Source: Escherichia coli
GTDB taxonomy: Bacteria > Pseudomonadota > Gammaproteobacteria > Enterobacterales > Enterobacteriaceae
Strand: one strand, 5' to 3'
Assembly (NCBI RefSeq): GCF_003334785.1
Contig: NZ_QOWV01000028.1
DNA length: 30,698 nucleotides
The position numbers and the translations under genes were made by a program. Positions 17,274 to 30,698 of the stretch are shown piece after piece (position 1 is the first letter of the stretch; every line of letters starts with the position of its first letter). The notes beneath the pieces were generated by a model. That model saw only the letters and a program-made list of their open reading frames with translations, searched no databases and was not told the origin of the DNA.

Positions 17274-17589
17274 CCGCTGACACAGGTCTGCGGCTGGAAT
17301 TGCCTGATGCGCTACGCTTATCAGGCCTACGAGTTCAGTGCTCTACGTAGGCCGGATAAGGCGTTCACGCCGCATCCGGCATAAACTACAGCTGGCAGAC
17401 AGCCGCTGCGAAGGCATTTTTGCACATGGCGTTGGAGGAATGCGCGGTTGTTGGCGGGAATGAATCACGGTAGCCGCTGACACAGATCAGCGGCTGGAAT
17501 TGCCTGATGCGCTACGCTTATCAGGCCTACGAGTTCAGTGCTCTACGTAGGCCGGATAAGGCGTTCACGCCGCATCCGGCATAAACTAA
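17190..17589. repeat. Two tandem copies of a 200-bp unit (17190-17389 and 17390-17589), each holding the last 27 codons of cynR plus a REP pair; about 97% identical
   Basis: Direct comparison of the two stretches shows six substitutions over 200 bp; copy 1 is contiguous with cynR, copy 2 is a detached cynR 3' fragment followed by the same REP sequences. Confidence 0.9.
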
Positions 17590-26713: not shown

Positions 26714-28300
26714 ATGGCACATCCACCACGGCTTAATGACGACAAACCGGTTATCTGGACGGTATCTGTAACGCGCCTGTTCGAGCTGTTTCGCGATATC
26801 AGCCTCGAGTTTGATCACCTGGCGAACATTACCCCTATTCAGCTTGGCTTTGAAAAAGCAGTGACCTACATCCGCAAGAAACTGGCAAACGAACGCTGTG
26901 ACGCCATCATCGCGGCTGGCTCTAACGGCGCGTACCTGAAAAGCCGCCTGTCAGTGCCAGTTATTTTGATTAAACCGAGCGGCTACGATGTGTTACAGGC
27001 ACTGGCAAAAGCCGGAAAACTCACCTCTTCTATCGGCGTTGTCACCTATCAGGAAACCATTCCAGCGCTGGTGGCGTTTCAAAAAACCTTTAATTTGCGC
27101 CTCGACCAACGTAGCTACATTACCGAGGAAGACGCACGCGGGCAGATTAACGAGCTAAAAGCTAACGGCACCGAAGCGGTGGTCGGCGCAGGGCTGATTA
27201 CCGATTTGGCAGAAGAAGCCGGAATGACCGGAATTTTTATCTATTCCGCCGCCACCGTGCGCCAGGCGTTCAGCGATGCGCTGGATATGACGCGCATGTC
27301 GTTACGCCATAACACTCACGATGCCACCCGCAACGCCCTGCGTACTCGTTACGTGCTGGGCGATATGCTCGGTCAATCACCACAGATGGAACAAGTACGG
27401 CAGACTATTTTGCTGTATGCCCGCTCCAGTGCGGCGGTGTTGATTGAGGGGGAAACGGGGACGGGCAAAGAGCTGGCGGCCCAGGCGATTCATCGGGAAT
27501 ATTTTGCCCGCCACGATGCGCGACAGGGCAAAAAGTCGCATCCGTTTGTTGCCGTCAACTGCGGGGCGATTGCCGAATCGCTGCTGGAAGCAGAACTGTT
27601 TGGCTATGAGGAAGGGGCGTTTACCGGCTCGCGACGCGGAGGTCGCGCCGGGCTGTTCGAAATTGCCCACGGCGGTACGCTGTTTCTGGATGAGATTGGC
27701 GAAATGCCGCTACCTTTGCAGACCCGGCTGCTGCGGGTGCTGGAAGAAAAAGAGGTCACCCGCGTCGGCGGGCATCAGCCTGTTCCGGTAGATGTACGGG
27801 TCATTAGCGCCACTCACTGCAATCTGGAAGAAGATATGCAGCAAGGACGTTTTCGCCGTGATCTGTTTTATCGGCTGAGTATTTTGCGTCTGCAATTGCC
27901 ACCACTGCGCGAGCGGGTGGCGGATATTCTTCCGCTGGCGGAAAGCTTTTTGAAAGTGTCTCTGGCGGCGCTCTCCGCCCCATTTTCTGCTGCATTACGC
28001 CAGGGGTTACAGGCAAGTGAAACTGTGCTGCTGCACTACGACTGGCCAGGCAATATTCGTGAACTGCGCAATATGATGGAACGACTGGCGCTGTTTTTAA
28101 GTGTGGAACCGACGCCGGATTTAACGCCGCAGTTTATGCAACTGCTACTGCCGGAACTGGCGCGCGAGTCGGCGAAAACTCCCGCTCCACGCTTACTGAC
28201 ACCACAACAGGCACTGGAGAAATTTAATGGCGATAAAACAGCAGCGGCGAATTATTTAGGCATCAGCCGGACGACGTTCTGGCGGCGGCTGAAAAGCTGA
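26714..28300 (+). CDS. prpR: sigma-54-dependent transcriptional activator of the prp operon
   Basis: ORF track 532 aa from a TTG at 26702; canonical 528-aa PrpR begins [19 protein letters not shown] (ATG 26714); central AAA+ sigma-54 interaction domain (GETGTGKE Walker A, GAFTG motif) and C-terminal HTH. Confidence 0.94.
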
Positions 28301-28303
28301 ACT

Positions 28304-28335
28304 GCCGAATGCAGCGCGAACGCTTTATCCGGCAT
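28304..28335. repeat. Degenerate REP-like palindrome downstream of prpR (gccgaatgcagcgcgaacgctttatccggcat)
   Basis: Imperfect inverted repeat resembling REP in the convergent prpR-yahO spacer. Confidence 0.5.
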
Positions 28336-28397
28336 AAATTTCAATAGATGATCACCGATAAACTTACGCATCGGAGATGTTTACATAGGATTCAGAA

Positions 28398-28673
28398 TTA
28401 CTTCTTCTTATAAATATTTGCCGTGCCGTGGATCTTATTGTCAGTTTGACCGGAGGTCAGTACCAACACATCAGCCCCTTTTTCATCCGCTTTTTTGATC
28501 AAATCTTCTTTTGCATCTGCAGTCGACATTTCATTGCTGGTTGAAATATCACCTATTTTTTCATACTGCGATTCAACTTTTTCAAATTCCGCTTTGGTCA
28601 TCAATTCAGCGGCATAGACATTGGTAACGGCTAACGCTAACGCACCGACTAACATTTTAGAGATTATTTTCAT
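28398..28673 (-). CDS. yahO: small periplasmic protein of unknown function (YahO-like, predicted signal peptide)
   Basis: ORF 91 aa [30 protein letters not shown]...; hydrophobic N-terminus ending in the signal-peptidase motif VYA-AE; lysine-rich mature part; AT-rich gene. Confidence 0.88.
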
Positions 28674-28819
28674 ATTACGGCTCCAGAGTTGTTATCACAC
28701 TATCACCCACCCACATTATTGGGTTGATTAATAATTAGTTCAGTCAGGGCATAAACGCCAGTAACCGGAAATAAGACACTTTGTGATCTCTCTCGTACCC
28801 GATTATTTTTGGTAGAAAT

Positions 28820-29491
28820 ATGATGCAGTTAGTTCACTTATTTATGGATGAAATCACTATGGATCCTTTGCATGCCGTTTACCTGACCGTAGGACTGTTC
28901 GTGATTACTTTTTTTAATCCGGGAGCCAATCTCTTTGTGGTAGTACAAACCAGCCTGGCTTCCGGTCGACGCGCAGGGGTGCTGACCGGGCTGGGCGTGG
29001 CGCTGGGCGATGCATTTTATTCCGGGTTGGGTTTGTTTGGTCTTGCAACGCTAATTACGCAGTGTGAGGAGATTTTTTCGCTTATCAGAATCGTCGGCGG
29101 CGCTTATCTCTTATGGTTTGCGTGGTGCAGCATGCGCCGCCAGTCAACACCGCAAATGAGCACACTACAACAACCGATTAGCGCCCCCTGGTATGTCTTT
29201 TTTCGCCGCGGATTAATTACCGATCTCTCTAACCCGCAAACCGTTTTATTTTTTATCAGTATTTTCTCAGTAACATTAAATGCCGAAACACCAACATGGG
29301 CACGTTTAATGGCCTGGGCGGGGATTGTGCTCGCATCAATTATCTGGCGAGTTTTTCTTAGTCAGGCGTTTTCTTTGCCCGCTGTGCGTCGTGCTTATGG
29401 GCGTATGCAACGCGTTGCCAGTCGGGTTATTGGTGCAATTATTGGTGTATTCGCGCTACGCCTGATTTACGAAGGGGTGACGCAGCGGTGA
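28820..29491 (+). CDS. yahN: LysE/RhtB-family amino-acid exporter homologue
   Basis: ORF 223 aa MMQLVHLFMDEITMDPLHAVYLTVGLFVITFFNPGANLFVVVQTSL..., multi-pass hydrophobic protein; length matches YahN as I remember it. Confidence 0.88.
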   Translation: MMQLVHLFMDEITMDPLHAVYLTVGLFVITFFNPGANLFVVVQTSLASGRRAGVLTGLGVALGDAFYSGLGLFGLATLITQCEEIFSLIRIVGGAYLLWFAWCSMRRQSTPQMSTLQQPISAPWYVFFRRGLITDLSNPQTVLFFISIFSVTLNAETPTWARLMAWAGIVLASIIWRVFLSQAFSLPAVRRAYGRMQRVASRVIGAIIGVFALRLIYEGVTQR

Positions 29492-29507
29492 GCAGATAAT
29501 TTACTCT

Positions 29508-29753
29508 CTACGTAATCAACCTGATTTGCCGAATCACGGCCATCGGCGATGATAGCCCCCGTAATGCGTGGTCCTTATTTCCGATAAGTTTACTTGAGTC
29601 TTTAGCTTCCCATTTCAGCCCACTCTCCCCTGTGTGGGCTTTTTTCATTGGTCTGCCCCATCCTGAATAGCCAAACAATGGCAATGTTCCACTTTGCAGG
29701 GATGATAATAAGGGGATCTGATTCAGAAGAGTTTTGAAAAGTTGGACCGCCAT
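29508..29753 (-). CDS. yahM: small uncharacterized protein YahM
   Basis: ORF track 91 aa from 29783; the 81-aa form beginning MAVQLFKTLLNQIPLLSS (ATG 29753) has a GAGG Shine-Dalgarno 7 bp upstream, whereas the longer start has none. Only 16 bp separate its stop from the convergent yahN stop. Confidence 0.75.
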   Translation of the reverse strand: MAVQLFKTLLNQIPLLSSLQSGTLPLFGYSGWGRPMKKAHTGESGLKWEAKDSSKLIGNKDHALRGLSSPMAVIRQIRLIT

Positions 29754-30165
29754 CGAGGCCTCGAACCCCGTACCATACAACAATCCTGGTTGTCGTCTGC
29801 TCTTCCTGATGAGCTAATGGCGGTTTTTGATATGAGCCTTACAGCATATTTTCTGTCAGGCTTGAGTGCGATGCGTAAGATACAGAAAAGACCCCACACA
29901 AACATGATGGAATTATGATTTTTTTCATATGAATGTCAACCAACACATTCACAAAACATCTGCATGAGATCATTTTTTATACACCGCATGGCTGCGAAAC
30001 CACTACTGGTGCTTTTTTAAGCGAAGTGTCGCCGATCACAACAAAATATCGGCGAAAAAAGAGATGGAATGCCAGTTGGCATACAGATATACAGATGAAA
30101 TGATTACCTGCATTGCGATTCACTCTCAGGTGGAATAACAACTTGCAGGTGGAACCCTTTCTGAA

Positions 30166-30698
30166 CTAAAGAGTGTAGCGGATTTTAACGTGCTTATTTA
30201 CAGGATAATATCTGTCACCTAATTCCTGCACTCTATTAGATATCCATTCATTTAATCGCGCATCATCTCTGTATGTTTTTACGTCCAGAACAGAGAGCAA
30301 TAACATCACCAGTGATTCAGGAAAAACAGGGTAGATATTTTTTAAGTGTAATAATAATCCATGCGCAAGCGCCTGCTTAATGGGCGCGTCTGTCTCCGGA
30401 ATAGACGACATTTCGCGAAGCCATTTTTCCACATGCATACACTCTTTCCCTTTAGGGAAAATTCTCAGCAAAGGCATATGGTATTCAAGAAGAATACATT
30501 TGCAATCTGTTCGCACTGAATCGATAAACTGCACTAATTTCTTAAGCCCGGTAAAGCGTCCAGCCTGCACGTTTGCTTTAATATCAAGAAACGCATCATC
30601 CTGGTCATATACCCAAACTGTCTGAACCGCCCCGGAAATCCTGGAGACTAAACTCCCTGAGAAAGAGGTAAACAGGATGACTAAAAATACTCGTTTTT
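30166..30698 (-). CDS. yahL: uncharacterized protein, 5'-truncated by the window end (probably yahL)
   Basis: Reading frame is open from 30166 up to the window edge (I translated 30571-30698 by hand and found no stop); the ORF-track start at 30570 is just the first GTG in from the edge. AT-rich; identity as yahL is inferred from map position only. Confidence 0.6.
   Translation of the reverse strand, partial: KRVFLVILFTSFSGSLVSRISGAVQTVWVYDQDDAFLDIKANVQAGRFTGLKKLVQFIDSVRTDCKCILLEYHMPLLRIFPKGKECMHVEKWLREMSSIPETDAPIKQALAHGLLLHLKNIYPVFPESLVMLLLSVLDVKTYRDDARLNEWISNRVQELGDRYYPVNKHVKIRYTL

Follow-up and report, generated by a model that had tools for sequence, protein, structure and literature searches.

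Lambdoid and Shiga toxin (Stx) phages carry the tRNA cluster ileZ-argN-argO, and degenerate copies of its argN gene occur in phage phiP27, on plasmid pHX138.261ft_1 and in phage YeP1. Pseudo-tRNAs are also found on the host chromosome: ptwF, pawZ and pauD of E. coli K-12 are fragments that represent partial 3′ duplicates of host tRNAs, derived from integration at attachment (att) sites. In other RNAs, such as the Salmonella Y RNA YrlA with its tRNA-like domain and mascRNA, cloverleaf or L-shaped modules serve for processing or protein binding. Here, we describe an 81-nt tRNA-like element with an encoded CCA end and an aberrant anticodon arm (positions 29743-29823, minus strand; MG1655 345334-345414), which is located between yahN and yahL in a 30,698-nt stretch of E. 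coli DNA (contig NZ_QOWV01000028.1, in the following referred to as the window). We consider it likely that the AT-rich tail of this window is a mosaic of three layers at the edge of a conserved gene block, and that this mosaic includes a functional tRNA-like RNA.

ARAGORN made one tRNA call in the whole window, at the position given above, where the element overlaps the start codon of yahM and sits within xtpA. Its minimum-free-energy structure, calculated with ViennaRNA, is a cloverleaf with a perfect 7-bp acceptor stem (CCGCCAU/AUGGCGG), U73 and the encoded 3′ CCA. On the D-arm side U8, A14, G18G19 and A20/A21 are present, and the T arm (CGGGG-UUCGAGG-CCUCG) agrees with the conserved T54-Psi55-C56 positions. 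The D and anticodon stems are separated by 5 nt instead of 1. For the anticodon arm, ARAGORN proposes a 5-bp stem and the loop CAGGAUU with A33 and U37; the thermodynamic fold gives a 7-bp stem (ACGACAA/TTGTTGT) and the 6-nt loop CCAGGA, which lacks U33. A canonical anticodon arm, with a 5-bp stem, a 7-nt loop, U33 and a purine at position 37, was not found, and as judged from its sequence the element would be incapable of acting as a normal decoding tRNA. The label tRNA-Ser(GGA) assigned by ARAGORN was rejected, as the element has no long variable arm and contains A33 and extra nucleotides.

The relatives of the element are found in phages. BLAST returned 32 phage records as well as a plasmid copy (85.7% identity) that is annotated “tRNA-OTHER” and lies between tRNA-Ile and tRNA-Arg; the identity to the phage and plasmid copies ranges from 75 to 86%. 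The homologue in Stx2 phages is argN itself, a tRNA-Arg(UCG) and the middle gene of ileZ-argN-argO, situated between the antiterminator gene and stx. Phages phiP27 and mEp460 contain an unannotated, degenerate argN copy in the same place (phiP27 17240-17321), and the homologue in Yersinia phage YeP1 is annotated as a pseudo-tRNA (“tRNA-Pseudo-TTG”). Scans of viral contigs revealed many canonical 77-nt argN genes and, in addition, a widespread degenerate argN variant of 80-81 nt, which has the signature GGAAGAGCAGACGAC in common with the element of the window. This degenerate copy is very common in IMG/VR prophage contigs (L158-L237), where the former T loop shows G-run variation (78-86 nt in total length), and a minority of the phage copies (phiP27-like) retain an intact T loop. 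The chromosomal anticodon-arm variant or intermediates leading to it were not found in the 2.9 million viral contigs of IMG/VR. To our knowledge, the element is unrelated to the tRNA-Arg genes of the host.

A covariance model that we built from 26 distinct phage argN sequences gave a single full-length match in the window (65.4 bits, E ∼1e-15), with the next best hit at 10 bits. It also detected the element at the three other Escherichia loci; the loci searched from Citrobacter and Salmonella gave no hit. Homology to the phages ends at the edges of the tRNA: local alignments of the flanks with three phages were no better than those of shuffled sequences, and we rejected on this basis that the leader or the downstream DNA represents degraded ileZ/argO or other phage DNA.

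The element and phage argN have in common the acceptor stem (CCGCCAT/ATGGCGG), U73 and the CCA end, the D-arm pattern and the T arm (CGGGG-TTCGAG-CCTCG). Unlike phage argN, the element is chromosomal and occupies a fixed site between yahN and yahL rather than a position downstream of a prophage Q gene, it possesses a predicted promoter and leader of its own within flanks unrelated to phage DNA, and it carries a unique anticodon arm. It is also invariant across Escherichia species, whereas the phage copies decay. The fragments ptwF (which also appears in PMC3946193), pawZ and pauD resemble the element in that they are non-decoding, tRNA-related, encoded on the K-12 chromosome and linked to phages. 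In contrast to them, the element is full-length, with both acceptor strands present, and lies away from a prophage boundary. The likeness to YrlA and mascRNA is confined to the proposed mode of action, the element having neither a sequence relationship nor an Rfam match to such families.

The case for function is carried by conservation. Beyond E. coli, we compared E. albertii, Escherichia sp. E1V33 and a divergent lineage labelled E. coli SCPM-O-B-8794 (L011). In all three of them, the element is identical at 81 of 81 positions, while the third codon positions of yahN are 61-66% identical and the synonymous divergence (dS), measured against L011 alone, amounts to 0.34-0.70. Divergence sets in within about 10 nt on both sides, the downstream flank being 35-85% and the leader 78-88% identical. 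Within E. coli, a 97-nt query centered on the element is matched with at least 99% identity in 4751 of 5171 records (92%); with the neighboring 97 nt of yahM coding sequence as the query, 1523 of 5115 records (30%) reach this level. The element is thus conserved well above the neutral level, and independently of the open reading frames (ORFs) that overlap it. We take it as fairly probable that these 81 nt function as an RNA.

Neither of the two ORFs annotated at this site shows comparable constraint. The yahM ORF (81 aa; 29508-29753, minus strand) starts with an ATG inside the 3′ acceptor strand of the tRNA-like element, so that a tRNA-type 3′ processing would remove its start codon. In each of the three other lineages, the frame can be followed for only 11-31 codons before it ends or diverges; it is frameshifted in E. 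coli AVS0528, it contains the terminator hairpin of yahN, and protein family searches gave no match. It probably does not represent a genuine conserved coding sequence. The xtpA ORF (b4845; 29723-29905, minus strand), annotated in MG1655, is interrupted by a TAG at codon 4 in E. albertii and L011, and our literature search found no source paper for its name and annotation. From these frame comparisons, the overlapping yahM and xtpA would not explain the conservation of the 81 nt. Hence, MG1655 345334-345414 behaves like a gene under strong purifying selection, yet is annotated only as two non-conserved ORFs.

A number of observations weigh against this interpretation, several of which favor a neutral origin instead: the sequence could be a pseudo-tRNA relic of an old lambdoid prophage, its invariance being due to selection on XtpA or YahM, to a DNA-binding site or to gene conversion. 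Besides the non-canonical anticodon arm, the Rfam tRNA family RF00005 gave no match, either at E ≤ 1 in a scan of the segment (2.7 kb) or at E ≤ 10 in the 171 nt surrounding the element, and all that these Rfam scans did return were sub-threshold chance matches. Among the chromosomal records listed, none has a RefSeq tRNA under the match, the annotation being “yahM”, “hypothetical protein” or “none”. Most of its nearest relatives in phages are pseudogenes in decay, their T loops being broken and their G runs variable, so that the ancestor of the element may already have been non-functional. The element is also dispensable, as about 5% of the E. coli genomes and lineage L034 are without it. In this lineage, Escherichia sp. 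MOD1-EC7003, a deletion (L034 8658-9400) has taken out the tRNA-like element together with its promoter and fused yahL, at its 3′ end, to the central part of the yahM region; different DNA, which may encode a transposase, is found upstream. The curators of MG1655 annotate xtpA as a protein gene, a putative regulator. Moreover, our comparison comprised only three non-coli lineages, and because the element is invariant, it offers no covariation that could prove an RNA structure. Finally, with regard to the surrounding DNA, occupancy by H-NS on the yahL side (61% AT) is plausible.

A relic would nevertheless have had to pass without a single change in 81 nt through three lineages that have diverged to the extent described above. 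Selection on the two proteins does not account for this, given that yahM and xtpA are broken in other lineages and that their synonymous positions are invariant as well. Most genomes hold one copy of the element and therefore no obvious donor for gene conversion, and the exact variant is absent from the viral contigs. We regard a neutral relic as unlikely, although it is the best of the alternatives.

The best promoter-like site of the region, TTGACA-16-CATAAT (29912-29939, minus strand), agrees with the σ70 consensus at 11 of 12 positions and is located about 80 nt upstream of the tRNA-like element, with a predicted start near 29905. Its –35 hexamer is kept in four Escherichia lineages and its –10 hexamer in three; in E. 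albertii, the latter reads CATATT and the spacer is 1 nt shorter. For yahM, a Reg-Seq preprint independently reports a promoter that is active and repressed by IHF (10.1101/2025.05.13.653802). The stretch between the predicted start and the element would form a leader of about 82 nt (29824-29905, minus strand), which occupies the same DNA as the 5′ portion of the xtpA ORF. According to RNAalifold, the leader would fold into two hairpins ahead of the cloverleaf, and one compensatory pair was found in a leader hairpin among the lineages compared. A 29-codon ORF (MKKIIIPSCLCGVFSVSYASHSSLTENML; 29839-29928, minus strand) begins within the spacer of the promoter and extends across the leader; the A-richness of this spacer probably accounts for it.

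We propose that transcription from the σ70 site, starting near 29905, would produce the leader followed by the 81-nt tRNA-like unit (29823-29743), which retains U73 and the CCA end of the phage argN tRNA-Arg as well as its acceptor stem and its D and T arms. RNase P together with 3′ trimming could then release a stable, L-shaped RNA of 81 nt that ends in CCA. In the absence of a usable anticodon loop, such an RNA would probably act by binding a factor that recognizes the shape of a tRNA, serving as a decoy or regulator. With regard to its origin, we tentatively suggest, at somewhat less than even confidence, that the ancestor of Escherichia acquired an argN tRNA from a phage, that this tRNA then lost its decoding anticodon arm, and that the host turned it into a non-decoding, tRNA-like RNA with a promoter of its own. 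The genus would have maintained this RNA without change, as a decoy or regulator of a tRNA- or RNA-binding protein. CsrA is one possible partner, suggested by two CAGGA motifs on the minus strand (29805-29809 and 29784-29788, positions 16-20 and 36-40 of the tRNA-like sequence) that are 20 nt apart and displayed in the D loop and the “anticodon” loop. This pair presumably recalls the GGA-in-loop geometry of CsrA-binding sites; it may also be a coincidence because the D-loop copy is inherited from argN. If a stable RNA is made, it would add one more conserved structured RNA to the best-studied bacterial genome. In E. coli K-12, a functional RNA gene would then have gone unannotated beneath yahM and xtpA, two spurious ORFs whose y-ome entries would have to be removed or re-interpreted, and the locus would provide a clear case of a phage tRNA repurposed by the host.

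The window corresponds to the lac-cyn-cod-prp region of the E. coli chromosome in reverse complement to MG1655 (MG1655 position = 375157 – window position), with 2321 of 2322 positions identical in 28301-30622. An earlier note on this DNA had interpreted everything from the end of prpR onward as one horizontally acquired islet that is likely silenced by H-NS. Described in this way, the segment would be ordinary, since E. coli has many AT-rich orphan regions and the genes of this one already carry annotations. The gene identities given in that note (yahO, yahN, yahM and yahL) agree with the annotation of MG1655 and RefSeq, and the drop in GC content past prpR was borne out: 28301-30621 contains 43.8% GC compared to 54.8% in 1-28300 and is the lowest-GC 2.3-kb stretch of the window. 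Among sliding stretches of 2,321 nt (mean 54.7%, standard deviation 2.1), the lowest value elsewhere is 46.3%, at lacY/lacA. This part of the window (11885-13815; 45.5% GC) is close to the segment's own AT-richness, so that the segment stands out from the rest without being the sole AT-rich part. At a resolution of 200 nt, the low GC content resolves into two blocks: 28300-28900, comprising yahO and the yahO-yahN spacer (38-41% GC), and 29800-30620, from upstream of the yahM region through yahL (37-41% GC). Between them, yahN and the yahM region show 45-53% GC.

Codon usage deviates in every ORF of the segment, in line with the expectation of the earlier note. The GC content at third codon positions (GC3) is 0.39-0.50 in these ORFs versus 0.54-0.69 in the mhp, lacIZ, cyn, cod and prp genes. 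Taking the same genes as reference and holding the amino acid sequence fixed, we obtained z values for synonymous codon usage of –3.0 for yahO, –5.2 for yahN, –6.4 for yahM, –8.2 for xtpA and –9.7 for yahL. Elsewhere in the window, lacA (z –6.9) and cynR (z –4.5) deviate as well. Since the anomalies of composition and codon usage are real, the segment is not indistinguishable from core genes, which the earlier note had named, together with universal synteny, as evidence that would speak against an islet; the synteny of yahO-yahN, on the other hand, does reach Citrobacter and Salmonella. The genes were also said to switch strand at every step, which fails at yahM-yahL, both of which are encoded on the minus strand.

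The two genes next to prpR are well-defined members of known families. YahO (28398-28673, minus strand) is a small lysine-rich protein with 13 lysines in 91 aa (14%) and a clear member of DUF1471, which comprises small periplasmic stress proteins such as YdgH, BhsA and McbA. It passes the NCBIfam equivalog NF007400 with 171.7 bits (cutoff 90), and the solved structures 2NOC and 2MA4 are of near-identical sequences. YahN (28820-29491, plus strand; 223 aa) is a clear RhtB/LysE-type exporter, which passes the subfamily model TIGR00949 with 237.8 bits (cutoff 183.95) and scores below the equivalog cutoffs of RhtC, LeuE, RhtB and ArgO.

To survey this synteny, one genome per species was scanned, YahN relatives were collected at 29 loci and the neighboring proteins were mapped onto these loci. 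Escherichia, about 15 Citrobacter species and two subspecies of Salmonella enterica (arizonae and diarizonae) share the gene order prpB-prpR-yahO-yahN, with identities at the syntenic Citrobacter and Salmonella loci of 84-89% for YahN, 71-84% for YahO and 80-85% for PrpR. This arrangement identifies yahO-yahN as a divergent, long-resident pair that has stood beside prpR since before the split of Escherichia, Citrobacter and Salmonella. The low GC content of yahO recurs in every genus (40-41% in Citrobacter, 45-47% in Salmonella) and is a stable property of the gene. The GC content of yahN is an ordinary 53-57% in Citrobacter and Salmonella and about 50% in Escherichia, close to the E. coli genome mean of about 50%. 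In Enterobacillus and Edwardsiella (L031-L033, L036), YahN relatives of 77-80% identity are not adjoined by prpR or yahO, which suggests that yahN may have moved between lineages.

The pair is also expressed. The yahO gene is 241-fold RpoS-dependent in EDL933 (PMC2907692), and the mature form of YahO, which lacks the signal peptide, is present in sufficient amounts for matrix-assisted laser desorption/ionization (MALDI) imaging of biofilms of uropathogenic E. coli (PMC4349694), contrary to the silence ascribed to the segment as a whole. A high-confidence CRP site from chromatin immunoprecipitation sequencing (ChIP-seq) in enterotoxigenic E. coli (ETEC) H10407, TGTGATCTCTCTCGCA, was assigned to the yahN/yahO spacer (PMC4287617). 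In the window, the divergent promoter region contains the CRP-box-like sequence TGTGATCTCTCTCGTA (28782-28797), which differs from the published ETEC site by one base. A table of RpoD binding obtained by systematic evolution of ligands by exponential enrichment (SELEX) carries an “HNS” mark on several nearby spacers and none on yahN/yahO (PMC3946193). Because of the prpR synteny across genera and the reported expression and control by CRP and RpoS, the yahO-yahN half is not a recent silent islet.

The conserved gene block stops just past the terminator of yahN. This intrinsic terminator (GCCCAC-N10-GTGGGC followed by T6; 29617-29646, plus strand) lies inside the annotated yahM ORF and was recognized from an Rfam alignment and by direct reading; a simple terminator scan did not call it because its loop is longer than 8 nt. 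The hairpin is 92-98% conserved in L011 and E. albertii. In the loci compared, E. coli sequence from 29492 onward is found in Escherichia only. In Salmonella, yahN is followed after about 40 nt by an ORF for a TonB-dependent receptor of about 700 aa, which we take to be foxA, and in Citrobacter werkmanii by a diguanylate-cyclase-like ORF. Thus, absence from the sister genera, as expected of an islet, applies beyond the yahN terminator and not to yahO-yahN.

At the far end of the segment lies yahL, of which the 3′ 152 codons are present (30153-30622, minus strand). The match to K-12 ends at 30622, and the last 76 bases (30623-30698, plus strand) are the left end of an insertion sequence (IS) of the IS3 family (IS1203-like). 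It interrupts yahL at about codon 120, and its first ORF (MTKNTRF...) begins within these bases. The earlier note was correct in calling yahL truncated, but the cause is this insertion at 30622/30623 and not the edge of the window. The 76-nt end, the only part of the IS element held by the window, is 97-100% identical to annotated IS3-family and IS1203 loci on many replicons. None of the 5,426 complete E. coli genomes contains this exact yahL::IS junction, even though the DNA next to it is 100% K-12-like.

The presence of yahL varies between strains: a yahL fragment was detected in 4042 of the 5426 complete genomes (74%), compared with 5134 for a yahO-yahN query and 5157 for a yahM-region query. 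In strains without the gene, exactly 836 bp are missing at a clean join, GCAGGTGG|...|CTCTCTTAAAT, with a boundary at about 30152 and a few bases of possible microhomology, and yahK then adjoins. YahL has been treated as a signature protein of E. coli/Shigella and yahL has been used as an “E. coli-specific” polymerase chain reaction (PCR) marker (PMC11057252); about one-fourth of the complete genomes searched do not contain it. Genomic SELEX revealed strong binding of the RpoF, RpoE and RpoH holoenzymes inside yahL, with intensities of 27.1, 17.8 and 5.6 (PMC5493296), the sites being located at MG1655 ∼343660 in old coordinates.

Homologues of YahL, searched for among 1.84 billion representatives by a word-indexed method and by exhaustive HMMER, are copies in Escherichia, fragments and one remote sequence with 26% identity. 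The latter (L278; GCA_009799345.1) is found at an unrelated locus, where a DUF2686 (YjfZ-like) gene of comparable length is located some 4 kb away, the two genes occupying 942-1772 and 6001-6828; a link between YahL and DUF2686/YjfZ was not supported by BLASTP. No Pfam family scored below E 0.001, and NCBIfam, PHROG and PADLOC gave no match. The AlphaFold model is poor (predicted local distance difference test, pLDDT, 54.9), and a Foldseek search against the PDB returned nothing below E 0.08. The ratio of nonsynonymous to synonymous divergence (dN/dS) against L011 is 0.17 for yahL and 0.02-0.05 for its neighbors. We interpret yahL as a real coding gene, evidently a fast-evolving orphan.

How much of the single, H-NS-silenced islet survives can now be judged. 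In its favor, the 2.4-kb segment has the lowest GC content of the window and a deviant codon usage in every ORF, the DNA past the yahN terminator is restricted to Escherichia, with yahL varying between strains, and the segment contains an IS element as well as a tRNA-like sequence of phage origin. H-NS prefers AT-rich DNA, and the yahL block with about 60% AT falls within the preferred range. AT-richness, codon deviation and restricted distribution are features that the yahL side has in common with H-NS-silenced islets, and this side looks like young DNA that may be targeted by H-NS; our full-text literature search found no usable H-NS ChIP data for genes of the segment. Unlike such islets, however, the segment has no mobility module, and half of it is ancestral and expressed. 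No integrase or phage protein family match was found in it and no direct repeats flank it, the IS element being a secondary insertion inside yahL, and the indel structure points to separate events. The synteny of yahO, yahN and prpR predates the split of the three genera, the GC content of yahN in the sister genera is ordinary, and yahO is strongly expressed under RpoS and CRP control from a spacer without an H-NS mark. We consider one islet comprising the whole segment improbable, more so than the relic.

The mosaic that we favor instead would be composed of three layers. The first is the old divergent pair yahO-yahN, expressed and under CRP and RpoS control according to the published work. 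The second would be an Escherichia-specific insert that begins just past the yahN terminator and the selected product of which is most likely an RNA and not YahM or XtpA. The third would be yahL: a precise indel of this one gene would account for its gain or loss, and the IS3-family insertion has inactivated it here. In this way, old residents (yahO and yahN) can be told apart from young DNA (yahL). That the low GC content merely reflects gene-specific constraints (a lysine-rich periplasmic protein, a membrane protein and promoter-rich spacers) rather than foreign origin would fit yahO being AT-rich in all genera, yahN being near the genome mean and much of the segment being intergenic, but is very unlikely, as the deviation of GC3 and synonymous codons is independent of the amino acids and strongest for yahL, yahL and the tRNA-like insert are taxonomically restricted, and the tRNA-like element has phage relatives.

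Between prpR and yahO, just past the prpR stop codon, direct reading of the sequence revealed a single palindromic element of the repetitive extragenic palindromic (REP) type, GCCGGATAAAGCGTTCGCGCTGCATTCGGCA (28301-28335). It coincides with a weak, sub-threshold Rfam match to the REP-derived family naRNA4 (28261-28334; 28.6 bits, E 0.019, gathering score 59.5).

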